22,040 nucleotides of DNA from a virus. The notes below the pieces were generated by a model. That model was not told where the DNA came from and made no database searches. It was given only the letters and a program-made list of their open reading frames with translations. The stretch lies in UHGV virus genome UHGV-0332375; one strand, 5' to 3'. How positions within the stretch are numbered: position 1 is the stretch's first letter; every line of letters starts with the position of its first letter. A program made the translations under genes and the position numbers. This document shows, in pieces, positions 47-8,993 of this stretch.

Positions 47-340
47 TTAACTCTCGTTCAGCACACTAAACATCCCGTCACGCATCCCCTTAACTGACTG
101 TTTAACCTGATAAAGTTCCCTGCGCAGTTCCTGTACTTCGTTGTTATCCGCAAGCAGGATCAGGCAGCCTTCCGAGATCTTCACGGTAACGCCCGTGCCG
201 ATCTCAAATCCCGCTTCTCTCAGCCATTTGGCGCTGATTTTGATCACTGGTGTATCGCTGCGGTTGGGCAGATAACCCACGGTACAGCGACGCTGTGTTT
301 TGGAAATGGCGACTTCTGGCGTAATATCGCGTTCAGCCAT
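47..340 (-). CDS. SymE-family (type I toxin-like, AbrB/SpoVT-fold) protein
   Basis: 97-aa ORF; segment PVIKISAKWLREAGFEIGTGVTVKISEGCLILLA closely resembles the core of E. coli SymE (…[33 protein letters not shown]…) as recalled from memory; SD-like GAGG upstream of the ATG; followed by a terminator. Confidence 0.7.
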   Translation of the reverse strand: MAERDITPEVAISKTQRRCTVGYLPNRSDTPVIKISAKWLREAGFEIGTGVTVKISEGCLILLADNNEVQELRRELYQVKQSVKGMRDGMFSVLNES

Positions 341-421
341 GATTAACTACCTCTGTTAGTTGCTTATGGTGAGCGGTGGTTAAGGGTGGCAGCCCTTAAT
401 CATCGCGCTATCTCAATGTTA

Positions 422-814
422 TTACTGCGTTTTTCCTATCACATTATCTAAAATCTCAGAAACCAGCTTCTGCTTCGTTCGCGGTAACTGGCTGATGATC
501 TCGATCTGCTGTTCCAGCCGTGACGCCGGGCCGCGCTTGCTGCTTCTGCGTGGTGCTGGCAATCCGAGCAGTTCATCCAGCGACAGGTTCAGGATCTGTG
601 CCAGTTGTGGTAACAGCGCTGCCGAAACCTTGAGCTTCCCGCCTTCGTAATGCGCCATCGTCTGCTGTGCAATCCCTAACTGTTCTGCCAGTTGCGTCTG
701 TGTCAGTTGCTGTTCCTTACGTGCCTGTGCGATCCGTGCGCCAAGCTGCTTAAAAAACTGTTCGTCTTTGGTGTTCATGGCCTGCTGTAGCTGTCCTGTC
801 GTTAACACTGCCAT
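422..814 (-). CDS. XRE-family helix-turn-helix transcriptional regulator
   Basis: HTH signature LTQTQLAEQLGIAQQTMAHYEGGK. The ORF track gives 422-850 from a TTG codon; I prefer the ATG at 814-812, which has a GGGAG Shine-Dalgarno 7 nt upstream (130 aa). Divergent from the primase gene. Confidence 0.7.
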   Translation of the reverse strand: MAVLTTGQLQQAMNTKDEQFFKQLGARIAQARKEQQLTQTQLAEQLGIAQQTMAHYEGGKLKVSAALLPQLAQILNLSLDELLGLPAPRRSSKRGPASRLEQQIEIISQLPRTKQKLVSEILDNVIGKTQ

Positions 815-839
815 GATGTTACTCCCTGTTTTAAATAAC

Positions 840-928
840 TTGGTTGACAATACCCTAATATAGAGTACTCTGCAACAGAGTTATTTTTACCCTAAGTCTA
901 TTGACAGGTTTTTACAGGAGTTCCCGTT
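840..928. promoter_or_regulatory. Divergent promoter/operator region between the XRE regulator and the primase
   Basis: Two TTGACA hexamers (844-849, 901-906), two TACCCTAA direct repeats (851-858, 889-896), a perfect 10-bp palindrome AGAGTACTCT (863-872) overlapping inverted repeat ACTCTG…CAGAGT; AGGAG SD before the primase ATG at 929. Confidence 0.4.
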
Positions 929-3751
929 ATGGCCCGCATCCCGGAAGCAGAGTTGCAGCACCTGAAAGCCGCCGTCTCCTTAGTCGCCGTGGTTCAGGCG
1001 CAGGGGCGACAACTGGTTAAGAAAGGGAAGGACTTCACCACGCTGTGTCCGTTCCATGACGAGAAAACGCCGTCCTGTGTGATCTCGCCCGAGAAAAACC
1101 TGTATCACTGCTTCGGCTGTAACGCAGGCGGATCGGTGCTGAACTGGGTGATGCAGACGGAAAAACTCAGCCTGCGTAAGGCAGCGGAACGTCTGAAAGC
1201 GGAGCTGGGCGACAATCCCGCCGTGGTGCCGCTGGTCACCAGGGATGAGCCGGAAATCTTCGCGGACGATGAAGCGGGCCGCCAGAAGCTGCTGGGCCGC
1301 GTGGTGGAGTTCTACCATCACACGCTGCTGAACGCGCCGGAAGCGGTGGCGTACCTGGAAAAGCGCCGTCTTAACCATCCTGAACTGGTCGCTGCCTTCA
1401 AACTCGGCTTCGCCAACCGTACCCTGCCTTACCGCCTGCCCGCCGTTAAATCACGGGCGGGCGAGAAGATCCGCGCCCGGCTTAAGGGTGTGGGTGTGCT
1501 GCGCGAGTCCGGGCATGAACACTTCACCGGATCGCTGGTTGTGCCGGTGATGGATCTGAACGGGCAGATCCGCGAGATGTACGGGCGCAAGATCACCGAC
1601 AGGTTGCGCAGCGGTACGGCGTTACACCTGTACCTGCCCGGTGCTCACGGCGGCGTGTGGAACGAGCAGGCGCTGATCGGGTCATCCGTGGTTATCCTGT
1701 GCGAATCGCTGATCGACGCCATGTCGTTCTGGGTCGCCGGAGTCCGTAACGTCACGGCGGCTTACGGGGTGAACGGCTTCACCGGTGAGATGCGGGCCGC
1801 ACTGCTGGCACACGGCGTTAAGCAGGTGCTGATCGCCTACGACAACGATCCGGCGGGCAATGAGGCAGCGGTGAAACTGGCTTCTTCCTTAGCCGCTGAC
1901 GGGATCGCCACGTTCCGCGTACTGTTCCCGGCGGGCATGGATGCGAACGGTTATCTGTGCCAGGTGGCAGAGCCGGAACAGGCGTTCAGTGTGTTGCTGG
2001 ACGGCGCGGTGCCCATGAGTGACCTGGCTGACGTGGCGAGTATCGCGCCGCAGGCCAGCGCGGAGCCTGCACACCTCACTTCGTTAGCCGCTGATGTTGC
2101 CGCGCTTCCGGCAGTTAGTGCGCCTGCGCCGGGCGTCAGCGTGGAAACCCTGGCTGATGGCGAACTGATGGTAGCCTTACCGGGCGAACGCTGGACAATC
2201 CGGGGCGTAAGCCGCAAAACCAACGCGGCGGCGATGAAGGTTAACGCGCAGGTGCTGGACACGGAAAGCGGCGTGGTGTTCGCCGATGCGGTGGATATGA
2301 TGAGCGCCCGCAGTCGCGGCGGTTATGCGCGGGCCGCAGCGGCAGAGCTTGGCCTGGCAGAAGGCGATCTGCGTCGCTCGCTGGGTAAGGTGCTGCTGGC
2401 GCTGGAGCACTGGCAGGCCGCACCGGAGCCCGCGAATGCCGCCCCGGAGATGACGCCGGAAGATCGGGAGGCAGCGCTTGAGTTGTTGCGCTCGCCGGAT
2501 CTTGCATCACGCATCGCGGCAGACATGGCGGCGTGTGGTGTGGTGGGTGAGTCCACCAACCTGACGGCGGCGTATCTGGCGGCGGTGTCGCGTAAGCTGG
2601 ACAGGCCGCTGGCGGTGCTGATCCAGTCATCGAGCGCGGCGGGCAAATCCTCGCTGATGGATGCGGTGCTCAACCTGATCCCGCCGGAAGAACGCTTACA
2701 GTACAGCGCCATGACCGGGCAGAGCCTGTTCTACCTCGGTGAAACCAACCTGCAACACAAGATCCTCGCCATCGCGGAAGAAGAAGGTGTGCGCCAGGCG
2801 GCGTATGCGCTCAAGCTGTTGCAGTCGGACGGCGAGTTAACGATCGCGTCAACGGGTAAGGACGACGCCAGCGGTAACCTGGTCACGAAACAGTACACGG
2901 TAAAAGGCCCGGTGATGCTGATGCTGACCACCACCGCCATCGACGTTGACGAGGAGTTACTCAACCGTTGCCTGGTGCTGACGGTGAACGAGTCGCGGGA
3001 GCAGACGGAAGCGATCCATGCGGCGCAGCGTTACGCGCAGACGCTGGAAGGACTGCTGGCGGCTAACGAAAAAAGTTACATCACTCAGCTTCACCAGAAC
3101 GCGCAGCGGCTGTTACGTCCGCTCAACGTGGTGAACCCGTTCGCGTCACAGCTCACGTTCATGAGCGACAAAACCCGCACCCGGCGCGACCACATGAAAT
3201 ACCTGACGCTGATCCAGACGATCGCCCTGCTGCACCAGTATCAGCGGGAGATCAAACGTGTGGAGCATCGCGGGCAGGTGGTGGAGTACATCGAGGTGAC
3301 GCGGGAAGACATCGCGCTGGCGAACCGCCTGGCACATGAAATACTCGGGCGCACCCTGGACGAAATGCCGCCGCAGACCAGAAAGCTGTTGCTGCTGATC
3401 CAGACAATGGTCGGTGAACTGGCAGCGGCGCAGCACTGCAAACCCGGCGAGGTACGCTTCACGCGCCGGGAGATCCGCGACTTCACGCAGTGGAGCGACA
3501 ACCAGCTTAAAGTCCACTGTATGCGGCTGGCGGAAATGGAATACCTGCTGATCCACGGCGGCAGCCGGGGTCACCTGCTGCAATACGAGTTGCTGTGGGA
3601 CGGCAGCGGCGACGGCTCGCACCTGTGCGGCCTGATCGAACCGGAGGACAGCCCGGTGTATGACTCCGGCAAGTTGGGGCAGAACGCGGACAGGTTGCCC
3701 TTAAGTTGCCCACATGTTGGGGCTAAGTTGGGGCTAAGTTGGGGGCGGTAA
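929..3751 (+). CDS. DNA primase, DnaG-like (CHC2 zinc finger, TOPRIM) fused to a large C-terminal domain with a P-loop-like motif
   Basis: 940-aa ORF. N-terminus CPFHDEKTPSC…YHCFGCNAGGS matches the DnaG zinc-binding domain (E. coli DnaG CCPFHNEKTPSF…YHCFGCGAHG); TOPRIM-like ILCESLIDAMS and AYDNDPAGNEAA; Walker-A-like SSSAAGKSS in the C-terminal half. The last ~30 codons overlap an iteron-like repeat array, so the exact C-terminus is uncertain. Confidence 0.85.
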   Translation: MARIPEAELQHLKAAVSLVAVVQAQGRQLVKKGKDFTTLCPFHDEKTPSCVISPEKNLYHCFGCNAGGSVLNWVMQTEKLSLRKAAERLKAELGDNPAVVPLVTRDEPEIFADDEAGRQKLLGRVVEFYHHTLLNAPEAVAYLEKRRLNHPELVAAFKLGFANRTLPYRLPAVKSRAGEKIRARLKGVGVLRESGHEHFTGSLVVPVMDLNGQIREMYGRKITDRLRSGTALHLYLPGAHGGVWNEQALIGSSVVILCESLIDAMSFWVAGVRNVTAAYGVNGFTGEMRAALLAHGVKQVLIAYDNDPAGNEAAVKLASSLAADGIATFRVLFPAGMDANGYLCQVAEPEQAFSVLLDGAVPMSDLADVASIAPQASAEPAHLTSLAADVAALPAVSAPAPGVSVETLADGELMVALPGERWTIRGVSRKTNAAAMKVNAQVLDTESGVVFADAVDMMSARSRGGYARAAAAELGLAEGDLRRSLGKVLLALEHWQAAPEPANAAPEMTPEDREAALELLRSPDLASRIAADMAACGVVGESTNLTAAYLAAVSRKLDRPLAVLIQSSSAAGKSSLMDAVLNLIPPEERLQYSAMTGQSLFYLGETNLQHKILAIAEEEGVRQAAYALKLLQSDGELTIASTGKDDASGNLVTKQYTVKGPVMLMLTTTAIDVDEELLNRCLVLTVNESREQTEAIHAAQRYAQTLEGLLAANEKSYITQLHQNAQRLLRPLNVVNPFASQLTFMSDKTRTRRDHMKYLTLIQTIALLHQYQREIKRVEHRGQVVEYIEVTREDIALANRLAHEILGRTLDEMPPQTRKLLLLIQTMVGELAAAQHCKPGEVRFTRREIRDFTQWSDNQLKVHCMRLAEMEYLLIHGGSRGHLLQYELLWDGSGDGSHLCGLIEPEDSPVYDSGKLGQNADRLPLSCPHVGAKLGLSWGR

Positions 3752-3803
3752 AACCGCCTGTAAGCCGCGCCAGTACTGGCACTGATGCGCCGCAAGTTGG
3801 AGC
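3671..3803. repeat. Iteron-like array of AAGTTGGGGC-type repeats (putative replication origin of the primase-bearing element)
   Basis: Copies at 3671-3680, 3692-3700 (AGGTTGCCC), 3703-3711, 3714-3723, 3725-3734, 3736-3746 and 3793-3803; three are in exact 11-bp tandem register (3714-3746). Read by eye from the sequence. Confidence 0.5.
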
Positions 3804-3903
3804 AGATGAAAAAACACTGTTCCCGACAGCCAGGAAAACATCACATCGTAACAGTAATACGCCGGAAAGCCGCCCGACACCCCATGACACGGCTCCGACA
3901 GCT

Positions 3904-3985
3904 CTGTAAGCCGCTCCGTGTCTGTTGTTGCTAACCATTCGCATGTATAAACAAACAGTTCATTTTTTACAAAAAACGCGCTATA
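3904..3985. repeat. Left copy of an imperfect ~85-bp direct repeat (CTGTAAGCCGC … ATGTATAAACAAACAG … ACAAAAAACGCGCT)
   Basis: Aligns by eye with 6306-6385: identical 11-mer CTGTAAGCCGC, 15/16 match over ATGTATAA(A/G)CAAACAG, similar T-run/ACAAAA/CGCT tail. A third partial copy of the 11-mer is at 3758-3768. Marks the GC-rich to AT-rich transition. Confidence 0.6.
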
Positions 3986-4126
3986 TACATCAATAGGTTG
4001 GAAGATGGTTTCTCCCCATCGATTATGAGTGTTAAAGCATTTTTATGACAATATGGTCATATTTTTGACCTAAGCTTATTTAGATGGTAGGATACATAAC
4101 CGTGATAAAGTAAATGGGCTGTCATT

Positions 4127-5266
4127 ATGATTTTAAATTTTGGTGCGAAAAATTTCTTCAGCTTTAAGGAAGGATTTGATATTTCATTTGAGCTTGGTAA
4201 TACTTGCCCAAAAGAAATTTCAAATGGGAAAGGCGTAACGAATATCCTTTGTATCAAAGGGGCTAATGGTTCAGGTAAAACGAATATACTAAAGGCACTA
4301 AGTTTTTTAACTAGTTTTATCTCTAATTCTTTTGATCTTAAACCAAATGCATATTTGCAGTTTGATCCATATTTTAATAGTAAATCTGAATCTGATTTCT
4401 ATATAACATTTGTATTAGATAATGTTATTTACAGATATGAAGCGTCAATGACTGACGTTGAGGTTAAACGAGAAGCTCTTTATAGAAAAAGTAAACGAGA
4501 AACTAAAGTTATTGAACGTATCAACGATGCAGTTGTGTTCACAATTAAAGAGTTTGATGAATTAAAAAGTATTAAAATGCGAAAAAATGTATCCCTTTTT
4601 AGCATGGCAATGCAATATGATGTTGATTGTGTTAGAGCAATTCATGAAAGTTTTACTAGGGTTATATCAAACGTCAGATATTCAGGTTTATTGACAGAAG
4701 TGCACGAATTAGAATATTTAAACGAATTTTATCATAATAACCCAGATGTATTCGATTTTTGTAAAAAAATTATAATGAAATTCGACCCCTCTATTCATGA
4801 TATTTATATAGCTAAAAATATTAATGATGACGGGAAAGTTACTTACAGGCCTTGGTTTGAGTTTGAGTTTGATGGTGAAACTGATATTTTAAGTTTTAAC
4901 CTGCAATCAAGTGGAACAAAATCATTATATAAGCAGTTAGGAAGTTATAAAGCTGTCCTGGCATTAGGTGGAACGCTTGTACTTGATGAGTTTGACATAA
5001 ATCTTCATCCTCATATACTTCCACATTTATTAGGTATTTTTATTGATGAGGAGCAAAACCCATATAATGCTCAGTTAATATTTACAACTCATAATACTGA
5101 GATTCTGGATTTTTTAGGAAAACATCGAACATATTTAGTCAACAAAAATAAGACTGAAAGTTATTGTTATCGACTTGATGAAATCCCTAGCGATATTTTA
5201 AGGAATGATCGCCCCATAACACCAGCCTATAATCAAGGTAAGATTGGTGGAGTTCCAAATTTATGA
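4127..5266 (+). CDS. ABC/AAA_21-family ATPase (abortive-infection / defence-type ATPase)
   Basis: 379 aa; Walker A GANGSGKTNILKA near residue 45, Walker B LVLDEFDINLHP, TTHN motif near the C-terminus; N-terminal MILNFGAKNFFSFKE typical of AAA_15/AAA_21 ATPases; strongly AT-rich codon usage; candidate promoter TTGACC-N17-TAGGAT about 4065-4093. Confidence 0.8.
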   Translation: MILNFGAKNFFSFKEGFDISFELGNTCPKEISNGKGVTNILCIKGANGSGKTNILKALSFLTSFISNSFDLKPNAYLQFDPYFNSKSESDFYITFVLDNVIYRYEASMTDVEVKREALYRKSKRETKVIERINDAVVFTIKEFDELKSIKMRKNVSLFSMAMQYDVDCVRAIHESFTRVISNVRYSGLLTEVHELEYLNEFYHNNPDVFDFCKKIIMKFDPSIHDIYIAKNINDDGKVTYRPWFEFEFDGETDILSFNLQSSGTKSLYKQLGSYKAVLALGGTLVLDEFDINLHPHILPHLLGIFIDEEQNPYNAQLIFTTHNTEILDFLGKHRTYLVNKNKTESYCYRLDEIPSDILRNDRPITPAYNQGKIGGVPNL

Positions 5267-5766
5267 GCAGAAAGTTTGGAAACTCCAATGCTCAAAAATT
5301 TCTAAAGGGATTTGAGGGGTTAGCAAGTCTTGACTCTGCAGAGTGTAATTTGGCTAGGAGATGTAAATTTAATTTCTCTTATTTTATAAGTAACCAAAAA
5401 GCTTGTGGTAAATTGTCGGATTGGGATAAAGATACAATATGTGTTTTTTTTGACAAGTTAATTGATTACTCTTCGAAATCGTTAAGTGATTTACAAATGA
5501 TCGGTTTGGGAAAGAATCGAAAAAAATTACTTTCTATTTATGATTCTTTCCCCAAAAATAGTTTGTTTGAACAACCTAAAAACATTCCTCATCAGGCTCG
5601 GTGGGGACGAATTAGATTAGATCAGAATAAAAGACTGATTGGGTTTGTTATTCCTGATGATTATCATGGACAAAGACATGAAGGCACTGGAATGTATTAT
5701 GATAAAAATACATTTTATGTTGTTTTTATTGATAATAACCATGGTTTTTATCTTCTTAATAAATAG
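5263..5766 (+). CDS. Hypothetical 167-aa protein, translationally coupled partner of the AAA_21 ATPase
   Basis: Start ATG overlaps the ATPase stop (ATGA at 5263-5266); same AT-rich composition; no motif I can assign to a known effector family (no HNH, TOPRIM, TM segments). Confidence 0.65.
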   Translation: MSRKFGNSNAQKFLKGFEGLASLDSAECNLARRCKFNFSYFISNQKACGKLSDWDKDTICVFFDKLIDYSSKSLSDLQMIGLGKNRKKLLSIYDSFPKNSLFEQPKNIPHQARWGRIRLDQNKRLIGFVIPDDYHGQRHEGTGMYYDKNTFYVVFIDNNHGFYLLNK

Positions 5767-5952
5767 CATTATCACTTCGGTTATCTATATGGGATATATA
5801 GGTGACCGAATTTTTAAGAAAAATGTTTTTAGTTGTAAAAACACATTGCGATATTTATTTCAGCATGTGGAACTGTAAGTATCTCGCATAATCGAAGCAT
5901 TCACATTTAGAGATCTTCTGGCATATTCATTCTGCCAACGAAGGAGATCGTT

Positions 5953-6295
5953 ATGCGTAAAGCCCATTTTACTGAGCATCAGATCATCGCTGTGATTAAG
6001 TCGGTTGAAGCCGGACGAACTGTCAAGGATGTTTGCCGCGAGACCGGTTTCTCTGAAGCGACCTACTACAATTGGAAACCTAAATACGGTGGTATGGAAG
6101 CCTTTGATATTAAAAAGATAAAGGATTTTGAGGACGAGAACAGGCGTCTCAAACAGATGTTTGCTGACATATCAGCCTTGAGAACAGGGCATTGAGACGT
6201 TATCGGAAAAAGCTTTGAAACCAGTCTTTAAGCGTGAGCTGGTCACTCATCTGATAACGACGTTCGGGCTTAGTATCCGTCAGGCCTGCCCCGGA
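5953..6295 (+). mobile_element. Truncated IS3-family insertion sequence remnant (orfA plus start of orfB)
   Basis: ORF 5953-6195 has the HTH_Tnp_1 pattern (FTEHQIIAVIKSVEAGRTVKDVCRETGFSEATYYNWKPKYGGME, similar to IS407-group OrfA); a shifted frame after an A-rich slippery-like stretch (GGAAAAAG ~6205) reads …LKPVFKRELVTHLITTFGLSIRQAC…, typical of an OrfB N-terminus, then breaks off about 6295 where repeat copy C begins. Higher GC than the flanking cargo. Confidence 0.6.
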
Positions 6296-6305
6296 CTTTA
6301 ATTTG

Positions 6306-6385
6306 CTGTAAGCCGCGTGATTCGTGCCCTGACACCCCAAATATATGTATAAGCAAACAGATCTTTTATAACAAAACCGCTCTTT
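6306..6385. repeat. Right copy of the imperfect ~85-bp direct repeat (CTGTAAGCCGC … ATGTATAAGCAAACAG … ACAAAACCGCTC)
   Basis: See 3904-3985; abuts the truncated IS remnant. Confidence 0.6.
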
Positions 6386-6428
6386 ACGCTTCAGGACTTA
6401 TAATATCGTGATTCCCCACATGACATCA

Positions 6429-7427
6429 TCAAGGCGTCGTTGCTTGAGTTGGATTCAGTTCAGAAACATTTGCAGCTTCTGCTTGCTGGACTATAGCTGT
6501 ACGGCGTTTCCGCTTTTTCTTCGGTTTTGGGCTAGTCATCTCTTTAATCCCCAGCATTTCCATGACTTCTGGCTGAGGTGGATAGCAAATACCTATGTCA
6601 GCAGGAGGTGTTGAGTGTCGATGTTTTTCAACTAACGATTTTTCATTATTCCAACGTTTGCAGAGGAAAATAATTCCTTCGAAGTAACGTTCATCTCTTT
6701 TCTGTGCCTCGAGAAGAATGAAAAATGCTCTTCTTTCTAGCCCTTCTAAAAATCCACAAAAGCATTCTCTGAGAAGTTTCTCGTCAAGATCATTGGCCTT
6801 AATTCCTTGAGCTAAAAACTCAAAGAAATTAAGAAGGTACACCAACCCGTTAATCCCTTTCACAACTTCATCTGGGACTTTTGAGTTTTTGAATTTTGGA
6901 TGGTCCGGGTCATCTCTCCAAACACATAGCTCTTTTGGAACATGGCGATTACCTCTCCATAAGTGCGTGAAATTACGCAAATGCGTTTGGTATTCAGTAC
7001 ATGTCCTAGTGCTAAGAACAACATTTAAAGTATGTTTTCTTCGATCACTTGCAGCGGAGGTGATGAATTGGATCCACCACCCCATACCAGCGATTGAACC
7101 GGCAACAATGATTGAAAGAGCTGTTTGGTAGGCATCATTATAGCGAAGTACGTAATATGCCAGCAGGAAAAGTACCCAAACCACACCTCCGAAAAGAGGT
7201 AGTAGTGGGTTTGTATCTGGAAATTTGTTACTGATTTTGTAGACGCTATATAGTGTTGTAAATGTTGCAAATGTAATCATTAACCCAGCATCGAACACTG
7301 CGTAAAACCAAGATGCAGTCTGTACTGCGTTTAAATTAAGTAAAATTCTCGTAATTATGAGACTGATCAAGATGCCAACCAGGACACCAAGCAGTGTTTT
7401 AGTTTTACTTTTTATCCATCGGTACAT
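6429..7427 (-). CDS. Hypothetical multi-pass membrane protein with C-terminal soluble domain and basic tail
   Basis: 332 aa; about four hydrophobic segments in the first ~120 residues (LLGVLVGILISLIITRILL, LMITFATFTTLYSVY, LFGGVVWVLFLLAYYVL, IIVAGSIAGMGWWIQFI); C-terminal KPKKKRKRR tract; AT-rich; lies just outside the prophage int-proximal end. Confidence 0.65.
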   Translation of the reverse strand: MYRWIKSKTKTLLGVLVGILISLIITRILLNLNAVQTASWFYAVFDAGLMITFATFTTLYSVYKISNKFPDTNPLLPLFGGVVWVLFLLAYYVLRYNDAYQTALSIIVAGSIAGMGWWIQFITSAASDRRKHTLNVVLSTRTCTEYQTHLRNFTHLWRGNRHVPKELCVWRDDPDHPKFKNSKVPDEVVKGINGLVYLLNFFEFLAQGIKANDLDEKLLRECFCGFLEGLERRAFFILLEAQKRDERYFEGIIFLCKRWNNEKSLVEKHRHSTPPADIGICYPPQPEVMEMLGIKEMTSPKPKKKRKRRTAIVQQAEAANVSELNPTQATTP

Positions 7428-7808: not shown

Positions 7809-8993
7809 TTATCCTGTACGGATTTCTCCATGCGGTACCACTACCCAGTTTGTATGATTTTTAGTGTATATTTTAGTCGATTTTGCATCGCTATGTGCCA
7901 TTCTTCCTTGTGGATCAATACCTTGTTTATCAAATAAGTGAGCAGCCAAAGCCCTTATCTCATGAAATGTAGGCCTTTCTTCCATTGCTAAGTGATTGCA
8001 CAGTCCGAGTTTGTCACGTACAGCAGAGAATGAGCGGCTTATGTAGTCCGGGGCCACTTGAGTAGGGTGCGAAACCTCTTTGCTACGTTTTACATTCCGC
8101 TTTGGAATTCTGTGGACAACGTAAGGACTGGCTACATTATCCCGACTGTTATCAATGATGCGTTTTAGTTCATCACCGATAGGGATTGCAACATGTGACG
8201 CCTCCTTTTTCTGTACCTTTTGCCGATGAATATATAGCATTCCGTATATTCCATTTTGTTGTTGCTCGAACCAGATACATCCACATATGCCGTCTTTAGG
8301 TTCGCGAATTGAGTAACGGATCCGCGATACTTCTAACCGTGCATGTGTCGTTTGTAAGGCTAAGTCCATTGCAGTTCTTAACCATGGTGCCGCGGCGCGG
8401 CGTATAGCCATGAAATGCTCGAATGATAGGCGTTGTCTTTTCTTCTCATCAGTCCTACGTTTTTTTTTCCTCGTTGCGGGGTTATCAAGCATTAGTGATT
8501 CGTCGACCGCATATGAGAACAACTTTTTAAGGAAGCCAACTTTTCTGTTCTGCACATTTGCGGATGAATTGTCATGATATTTGTTGATATAGGCGTTAAC
8601 GTGTTCAAGTTCGATATCGCATGCCGGAATATTTAAGAAAAAATCTTTTACGCGTAGAGCGTCATTTTTCCAGTCATCTAAGGTGCTCTGGGAAGGACGT
8701 TCGTCTTCGACAATTCGGGCCATTATGTGATCAACATGTTCAGCAAATGGTTTTGCTTCTCCGGTAACCCCGCCAGATTCTCTAATAAGATTATCCACTG
8801 ATGGGTATAATTCTGGTCGCATCCTCAGGTTGTACTCTCTGGCGATTGCAACGGCTATTGTCCGATCCTTACCTATATTTTTCTTTTTTCCGGTAATAAG
8901 TGTGAATTTATAAACACCTCGATCTTTATCAAAAACCAGATAATCAGGAAGATGTCTGTATTCTTTTTTACGTGGCCTTGCCGCCATGGTCAT
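7809..8993 (-). CDS. int: Tyrosine recombinase (phage integrase, lambda Int family)
   Basis: 394 aa; C-terminal catalytic region with PTFHEIRALAAHLF … GRMAHSDAKSTKIYTKNH; N-terminal basic arm-binding-like region; overlaps the xis stop. Confidence 0.9.
   Translation of the reverse strand: MTMAARPRKKEYRHLPDYLVFDKDRGVYKFTLITGKKKNIGKDRTIAVAIAREYNLRMRPELYPSVDNLIRESGGVTGEAKPFAEHVDHIMARIVEDERPSQSTLDDWKNDALRVKDFFLNIPACDIELEHVNAYINKYHDNSSANVQNRKVGFLKKLFSYAVDESLMLDNPATRKKKRRTDEKKRQRLSFEHFMAIRRAAAPWLRTAMDLALQTTHARLEVSRIRYSIREPKDGICGCIWFEQQQNGIYGMLYIHRQKVQKKEASHVAIPIGDELKRIIDNSRDNVASPYVVHRIPKRNVKRSKEVSHPTQVAPDYISRSFSAVRDKLGLCNHLAMEERPTFHEIRALAAHLFDKQGIDPQGRMAHSDAKSTKIYTKNHTNWVVVPHGEIRTG

Follow-up and report, generated by a model that had tools for sequence, protein, structure and literature searches.

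The 22,040-nucleotide stretch filed as virus genome UHGV-0332375, which we call the window throughout, carries an array of short direct repeats (iterons) at the end of a primase gene, open reading frame (ORF) 929-3751. Comparison of this array with those of its relatives leads us to conclude, with high confidence, that it is the cognate site of a winged helix belonging to the very protein whose gene it overlaps. We further consider it a probable origin of replication. The window derives from the Escherichia coli chromosome, at a type VI secretion system (T6SS)/Rhs locus adjoining ydcC-pptA-nhoA, and the element that bears the array is a small integrative, plasmid-like element of Rhs and contact-dependent inhibition (CDI) toxin loci.

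A phased array of iterons

Seven units of the form NNGTTGSSS (S being G or C) lie on the + strand of the window, starting at 3671, 3692, 3703, 3714, 3725, 3736 and 3794, with 21, 11, 11, 11, 11 and 58 bp between successive starts. The proximal iteron (AAGTTGGGGC, 3671-3680) stands 21 bp 5′ of a tandem block of five (3692-3745), which consists of AGGTTGCCCT at 3692, AAGTTGCCCA at 3703, ATGTTGGGGC at 3714, AAGTTGGGGC at 3725, with the same letters as the proximal unit, and AAGTTGGGGG at 3736. The distal iteron (AAGTTGGAGC, 3794-3803) begins 58 bp past the start of the last tandem unit. Most relatives share the +21 offset, and a distal unit at +53 to +58 is common among them. Altogether the array covers the last 27 codons of the ORF (about 80 nt), whose stop codon TAA is at 3749-3751, and about 50 nt beyond.

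An earlier note on this DNA had counted seven copies of an (A)AGTTG(G/C)(G/C)(G/C)C motif within about 130 bp at the end of the primase gene, three of them in exact 11-bp register, and the seven copies are indeed there. The motif with its final C is, however, exact in only two units (AGTTGSSSC has two matches in the window, insignificant alone), and the signal lies in clustering and phasing: six GTTGSSS cores fall within 72 bp, against 18 on the same strand over the whole 22 kb (Poisson P ~6e-9). The register also turned out to be larger, since three units are near-identical (Tandem Repeats Finder, 3716-3744, 100% match) but five keep a strict 11-bp phase. A register score for five 9-mers at this phase has its window-wide maximum, 37 of 45, at 3691-3692, whereas the maxima of 40 dinucleotide shuffles ranged from 29 to 33 and none matched the real array. 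In its makeup the array is thus what an iteron origin calls for, multiple direct repeats of one short sequence in helical phase.

A primase, a helicase and a winged helix in one protein

The gene at 929-3751 (+ strand) encodes an initiator protein of 940 amino acids. A CHC2 zinc ribbon (residues 6-92) and a Toprim/DnaG catalytic core (about 125-346) give it both parts of a DnaG-type primase, with domain matches to PF01807 (2e-25) and Toprim_2 (3e-18) and with DnaG structures matched in PDB. It is not the host DnaG, because its TIGR01391 score of 174 bits sits under the equivalog cut-off. An MCM-like AAA+ ATPase follows at about 525-800, with a Walker A motif at 570-575, and then a winged helix at about 815-888 (coding region 3371-3592, + strand); the protein thus combines an AAA+ fold of the MCM clade, with its Walker A, and a C-terminal winged helix behind it, as expected of an MCM-like replicative helicase. 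The last ~80 residues fold as a canonical winged helix in the predicted structure (predicted local distance difference test, pLDDT, 91.6), and similar winged helices occur in Cdc6, ORC2, a plasmid RepA and repressors of the MarR/ArsR type. Its recognition helix (W855-S-D-N-Q-L-K-V-H863, on to residue 869; 3491-3535, + strand) carries the specificity residues S856, D857 and N858, and C-terminal to the winged helix comes the tail encoded by the repeats. The earlier note was right to call this gene a primase, but the product is more than that, since its DnaG-type primase is joined to an MCM-like AAA+ helicase and a C-terminal winged helix.

The C-terminal half found no significant PHROG family of known function and no sequence match to phage families. 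A search of protein representatives counts 2596 clusters at E < 1e-30, which makes the family a large one. The diversity of the family was drawn from a search of 50% representatives, the best 120 homologue matches being near-identical E. coli entries.

A three-residue code and its exchange between loci

The winged helix was aligned from 80 loci, each labelled by its iteron class, and co-variation was scored over 71 loci. The core of the iteron co-varies with the three residues that start the recognition helix, S856-D857-N858 in the window. AAGTTGG is found with the helix motif SDN at 13 of 13 loci, AAGTCTG with SDS at all seven intact loci, AAGTCAG with SDG at four of four, CGGTCGG with GDT at 20 of 20, AAGTCGG with GNT at 12 of 13, and AAGTAGC with (T/S)DF at four of five. 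The purity of motif by class is 0.915, a value reached by 0/10000 label permutations, whose maximum was 0.535. When primase bodies are at least 85% identical and the iteron classes differ, the motif differs too, in 12 of 12 pairs; when the class is the same and the bodies are at most 65% identical, the motif is shared in 205 of 228 pairs. Because of these two results, the association of helix and iteron is not simply one of shared ancestry.

Individual pairs of loci make the exchange visible. L012 of Photorhabdus caribbeanensis has CGGTCGG iterons and L019 of P. cinerea has AAGTTGG iterons, and the two are 96% identical in the primase body, 97% in the recombinase and 97% in the helix-turn-helix (HTH) regulator encoded beside the primase, against 53% in the winged helix; DNA identity returns directly past the distal iteron and continues into the recombinase gene. 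The same pattern for body, recombinase and winged helix recurs in L020 versus L040/L056 and in L008 versus L009. Across the swap pairs, which come from Photorhabdus and Xenorhabdus, primase bodies are 94-96% and the downstream XerC-like recombinases 93-97% identical, and five locus pairs with recombinases of 93-97% identity differ in iteron class. To judge from these alignments, the exchangeable specificity cassette comprises the part of the gene that encodes the winged helix and every iteron, whether proximal, tandem or distal.

These swaps exclude the recombinase and the HTH protein as cognate binders and therefore leave the primase as the binder of the array. The divergently encoded HTH protein had been tried as a candidate and was ruled out on the L012/L019 pair, in which it is 97% identical despite the different iteron classes. 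Co-variation and cassette swaps together argue for specific recognition of the repeats by the DNA-binding domain of the initiator itself, as an iteron origin would require. Such a natural protein-DNA code is unusually clean, with three helix residues set against a change of two to three bases in the site and recurring across distant lineages, and it is directly open to testing by point mutation.

Conservation of the array as DNA

Comparison of orthologues for conservation at the DNA rather than the protein level had been proposed in the earlier note, with the concern that relatives might keep the protein tail and lose the repeats. The opposite was found. We examined 79 loci from genomes of many phyla, plus plasmid loci of Lonsdalea, Ralstonia and Leptospira. 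Most of these ~80 loci have an array with the spacing 21, 11, 11, 11, (11), ~53-58, which starts 55-59 nt past the equivalent of codon 895, the conserved end of the protein. Loci with this geometry occur in Enterobacterales, Burkholderiales, Xanthomonadales, Cellvibrionales, myxobacteria, Acidobacteria and Verrucomicrobia, with a less strict version in Leptospira. The repeated core varies by lineage (AAGTTGG, AAGTCTG, AAGTCAG, AAGTCGG, CGGTCGG, AAGTAGC, AAAACGG, AAATCGG and others). Placement next to or within the initiator gene, a further property of iteron origins, is therefore conserved across the family. Past the last tandem unit, relatives also keep an A-tract about 8 nt further on (3750-3753 in the window), then CAGGCC, AAGGGTT and the distal unit.

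The array persists where it is not translated. At 11 of 68 loci the ORF ends before the array, which is still intact; in Leptospira the stop lies about 140 nt 5′ of an intact array, and in E. coli a second, non-coding module (module B) keeps its array as well. Most E. coli have this repeat module of about 240 bp twice in tandem, module A overlapping the end of the primase gene and module B just 5′ of xerC with the same internal spacing. The tandem modules of E. coli and Shigella (L001 11527-11960, L002 9372-9810, L086 6720-7130) amount to 6 + 6 iterons. Photorhabdus loci, too, may have a second module, because the best-scoring array in them lies about 290 nt past the protein anchor; L008/L016 and L025/L027/L064 belong with these observations. 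Most other relatives have a single module; the duplication is reminiscent of two helicase-loading sites.

Near-identical alleles of E. coli and Shigella differ by one 11-bp unit, which frameshifts the tail (940 versus 988 amino acids). The window allele has five tandem units, and the common 988-residue allele and the Shigella plasmid copy have four (window 3725-3735 compared with L086 7064-7105 and L001 11557-11600). Annotated lengths of the protein in E. coli run from 918 to 1013 amino acids, consistent with slippage in the array.

The reading frame is nonetheless not indifferent to the array. The earlier note had remarked on an odd C-terminal tail encoded by the repeats, and it is so encoded, the successive 11-bp units falling in three reading frames and giving the peptides KLG, SCP and VGA in the window protein; the tail is, moreover, kept as open frame in most relatives, the primase frame being open through the array at 76% of 68 loci and the two remaining frames at 9-13%. 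Tails of relatives look alike (e.g., ..YDxKKSGxxxxKSGSSRPQVGxxSG..). The stop codon of the primase usually comes a few to ~40 nt from the start of the recombinase gene, and an open frame ending there suggests translational coupling, or a functional disordered tail that overlaps the binding sites.

Replication origin or other function of the array

We regard the array as the cognate binding site of the ORF 929-3751 product and, most likely, as the origin of replication of the element. The origin reading gains from the makeup of the binder, which unites the recognition domain with a primase and an MCM-like helicase, the two activities that an origin requires. It is also favoured because an 8.8-kb circular form of the element, Shigella flexneri plasmid NZ_CP055112.1 (8758 bp, exactly one unit), has its iterons confined to one region and has no other iteron cluster or replication gene, so that the array is the marked site. 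This plasmid matches the window with 100% identity in the C-terminal half of the primase and with identical HTH and SymE proteins. A Lonsdalea populi plasmid, NZ_CP072857.1 (11289 bp), also carries the element; one-unit and two-unit circular forms are both represented. Another unit lies on a contig of a metagenome-assembled genome (MAG) with a 91-nt terminal overlap. No other replication gene is listed for either plasmid or for the overlapping MAG contig, and the 8.8-kb and 11.3-kb circular records are in this respect circumstantial evidence of autonomous replication. A 13-kb Leptospira plasmid with a primase-recombinase pair was not used as evidence, its annotation being too poor.

The mechanism could then run as follows. 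The winged helix would read the 7-9 bp core AAGTTGG(S) through the N-terminal recognition-helix residues S856-D857-N858, at six or seven sites on one face of the DNA, of which one is proximal, four or five are at 11-bp phasing and one is distal. The sites would gather the subunits of the ring helicase, which would then open the less G+C-rich DNA alongside, and the primase domain of the initiator would start synthesis, by which the excised circular form of 8-11 kb would replicate. A possible opening and priming zone is 3803-3860 (+ strand), 3′ of the distal iteron, which is the most A+T-rich stretch of the module, peaking at about 60-65% A+T in an element of 37% A+T, and which lies outside the swapped specificity cassette. 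Physical binding, loading of a hexamer, melting at 3803-3860 and origin firing are steps that we infer. The suggestion of the earlier note, that these are iterons of an origin next to or within the initiator gene, gains support from their conserved placement and from the co-variation with the winged helix of that same gene, firing itself being the presumptive part.

Several observations weigh against an origin. The iterons are G+C-rich, as is the DNA that leads from the tandem block to the distal unit, and with only a modest A+T rise beyond it a classical unwinding element is weakly indicated. The open primase frame points to some protein-level or translational-coupling constraint on the DNA of the array. 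It is conceivable that the small plasmids arose in assembly, from tandem units on the chromosome. Finally, a prophage has cut the window copy off from its second module and recombinase, and this copy, which also carries the extra 11-bp unit, may no longer be functional.

The alternative that survives best, though we judge it unlikely, is that the winged helix binds the array for a purpose other than origin function, such as autoregulation or a roadblock at the 3′ end of the operon that affects expression of the recombinase, copy-number handcuffing, or a partition-like site. Evidence for a binding site alone fits an operator as well as an origin, the array sits between two co-oriented genes with the primase frame usually ending beside the recombinase start, and a strong A+T-rich unwinding element is lacking. 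Set against this are the fusion of the binder to primase and helicase, the 8.8-kb circle in which the array is the only marked site, and the fact that characterised analogues all use such arrays as origins. The two functions are partly compatible, because plasmid iterons commonly serve origin and control at once, and the sites may well act both as an origin and as an operator or in copy control.

Less probable is that the repeats are arm-type, accessory or attachment (att) sites of the XerC-like tyrosine recombinase. The recombinase gene does lie immediately 3′ of the array in practically every intact locus, and in the window a prophage is inserted in the array region. Yet near-identical recombinases accompany different iteron classes in the five pairs described above, and the identity of L012 and L019 resumes right past the distal iteron. 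In domain makeup, an N-terminal SAM-like domain followed by a catalytic domain (locus L045), the recombinases are Xer-like, and five to seven direct repeats at 11-bp phasing are unlike a Xer core site. The unit moreover has its boundary in another place, the Rhs core-end some 1 kb past xerC, and the prophage used a tRNA-Pro-like target of its own instead of the iterons.

We give equally little credence to selection of the repeat at the protein level, by which a low-complexity tail rich in Lys, Ser and Gly would serve, for example, in autoinhibition or as an interaction peptide and the periodicity of the DNA would follow as a side effect. The excess of open primase frames and the mutual resemblance of the tails speak for it. 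However, the 11-bp period places identical DNA units in three frames, where they encode different peptides; the 11 loci and the second E. coli module keep intact, matched arrays outside any ORF; a difference of one unit frameshifts the tail; and spacing is conserved to the base pair whereas tail length is not. As the main constraint it was therefore rejected on the untranslated arrays and frameshifted alleles, the open frame being real all the same.

The least probable reading, a structured RNA or terminator built on the hairpin GGCGGT-AAA-ACCGCC that the earlier note had placed after the array, is largely refuted: the hairpin is present (3744-3758, + strand, spanning the stop codon) with a 6-bp G+C stem and AAA loop, and E. 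coli module B has a different stem at the equivalent position, but RNAalifold gave 0 consensus pairs in 25 aligned post-array segments of relatives, which means that it is not a conserved part of the array, its energy is ordinary (-6.9 kcal/mol as DNA, z = -1.6, 17 of 200 shuffles folding equally well), no T run follows it, a promoter/terminator scan called no + strand terminator there, and Rfam in E-value mode matched no family over 3500-4150.

The element and its genomic context

The array belongs to a repeated unit in which the order is Rhs core-end with toxin tip, immunity gene, SymE (- strand), Xre-type HTH (- strand), primase (+ strand) and XerC-like recombinase (+ strand). In the window the SymE-family toxin gene is at 47-340 and the divergent Xre/RstR-like HTH regulator at 425-814, both on the - strand. 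Units are about 7.5-11 kb long and are tandemly repeated 3′ of rhs in E. coli (window 47-3888 compared with L001, L002, L003, L086, L012 and L045), and their sharp common boundary is the Rhs core-end coding sequence. Each toxin ORF begins abruptly at the Rhs core-end motif DPxGL...DPxGL, and genes upstream of the unit in 44 diverse loci often encode Rhs/YD or CdiA proteins. SymE and the RstR/Xre-like HTH genes are constant companions of the primase in Enterobacterales units. Since SymE is SOS-induced in E. coli K-12 (PMC1891008), there is by analogy a hint that the element may respond to DNA damage.

The earlier note had named phage satellites, beside integrative elements, as carriers of such arrays, and for the present host element a phage satellite has to be given up. 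Satellites are recognised by packaging or capsid-redirection genes, cos/pac, an AlpA-type regulator and a phage-type att site; the unit contains instead HTH, SymE, toxin tip, immunity gene, primase, XerC and an insertion sequence, and genes for packaging or capsid-size redirection are absent from it.

The unit looks like a replicative integrative vehicle for the exchange of toxin tips, and the element itself may be a more important lead than the array. We put forward tentatively, as a proposal whose chances we rate slightly below even, that the array is the origin of an undescribed, widespread family of self-replicating integrative elements of 7.5-11 kb. Such an element would consist of the HTH regulator, a DnaG-MCM-winged-helix initiator, an embedded iteron origin and a Xer-like recombinase, with a toxin tip and immunity gene as cargo; it would insert site-specifically at the 3′ end of the core of rhs (and cdiA), and its three-residue origin code would be exchanged as a cassette. 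Reviews have left open how such toxins are acquired and shuffled, noting "intervening integrase genes" between orphan modules without explaining them (PMC4927057). If the proposal is correct, these elements would be the vehicle, long looked for, by which new toxin tips arrive and tandem 'orphan' arrays stay behind, and cassette exchange might be a way to escape incompatibility between co-resident units.

Origin function of the array would by itself have consequences. The "DNA primase" genes in toxin loci of E. coli, Shigella, Photorhabdus, Xenorhabdus, Ralstonia and Leptospira would then mark replicating mobile elements and not stray genes, and the array would pinpoint the cis-acting site for minimal replicons of the family. 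Since the units carry Rhs/CDI toxin tips with their immunity genes, their replication bears on how bacteria acquire and shuffle interbacterial weapons.

The prophage insertion and neighbouring cargo

From 3888 to its end, the window consists of a prophage of about 42 kb that extends beyond 22040 and separates module A from module B and xerC, both of which reappear 42 kb downstream in strain GTEN_24 (junction compared with L087 21880-21960). Its left junction, the attL core, is at 3873-3887, and homology to other E. coli copies ends at 3888; the prophage integrase is encoded at 7809-8993. In genomes throughout the E. coli collection, the 3′ part of the tRNA-Pro gene is matched at 100% by the reconstructed attP. 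On the minus strand of the element, 23 nt repeat the anticodon arm of tRNA-Pro(GGG), and this copy served the prophage as a secondary attachment site. ARAGORN called no tRNA gene, either in the window or at the prophage junction, the tRNA-Pro similarity being a partial copy only.

The interval between junction and integrase (4127-7427) holds an AAA ATPase gene (4127-5266) weakly similar to retron/Septu-type PtuA effectors, an overlapping ORF of 167 amino acids (5263-5766), a transposase remnant and a DUF4760 protein gene (6429-7427, minus strand). These genes look like a defence-type cargo hotspot at the end of the prophage.

Comparison with known systems

An initiator helicase with cognate iterons 3′ of its gene in an integrative element is of a kind already known. 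According to three papers (PMC7581432, PMC6092414, PMC4234260), Rep of Staphylococcus aureus pathogenicity islands (SaPI), Pri-Rep of phage-inducible chromosomal islands (PICI), the alpha protein of P4 and Cch2 of staphylococcal cassette chromosome mec (SCCmec) all bind iterons just 3′ of their own genes. Together they describe a C-terminal domain of SaPI Rep that recognises iterons directly 3′ of rep, direct repeats between cch2 and the recombinase gene bound by Cch2, and PICI origins adjoining pri-rep. Literature searches did not find the architecture of DnaG-type primase, MCM-like helicase and winged helix, the fixed 21/11/56 geometry with the array embedded in an ORF, a readable helix-iteron code with cassette swapping, or a description of a replicative integrative vehicle for toxin tips.

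Unlike SaPI and PICI, with their Pri, Rep helicase and ori, the present element has primase and helicase in one polypeptide, and the primase is DnaG-type and joined to an MCM-like ATPase whereas that of SaPI/PICI is of the archaeo-eukaryotic type. In those islands two iteron sets flank an A+T-rich segment; here the iterons are G+C-rich, of one orientation, phased at 11 bp and usually inside the ORF, and genes for packaging or capsid-size redirection are absent. SCCmec, with Cch/Cch2 and the cch2-ccrC repeats, differs in using the serine recombinase Ccr in place of a tyrosine type, in having a separate primase (CCPol-MP or LP1413 partners), in the three 5-nt iterons described for it and in its Gram-positive hosts.

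The alpha protein of P4 comes close, being likewise one polypeptide with Toprim-type primase, helicase and a C-terminal winged helix that binds short direct origin repeats, as summarised in a paper that cites Ziegelin and Lanka 1995 and Yeo 2002 (PMC4234260). The present helicase is MCM-like, the element is no satellite, and the C-terminal half of its initiator is without sequence match to phage families. The helicase of P4 belongs to superfamily 3 and its iteron is TGTTCACC; the cis-replication region of P4 consists of two direct repeats of about 120 bp, reminiscent of the two ~240-bp modules in E. coli. Classical plasmid iterons of the RepA/pi/TrfA type are 17-22 bp long, spaced at about 22 bp and placed next to DnaA boxes and an A+T-rich region, and their initiators recruit the host DnaB and DnaG, whereas in the present element the units are 11 bp and the initiator has a helicase and a primase of its own.

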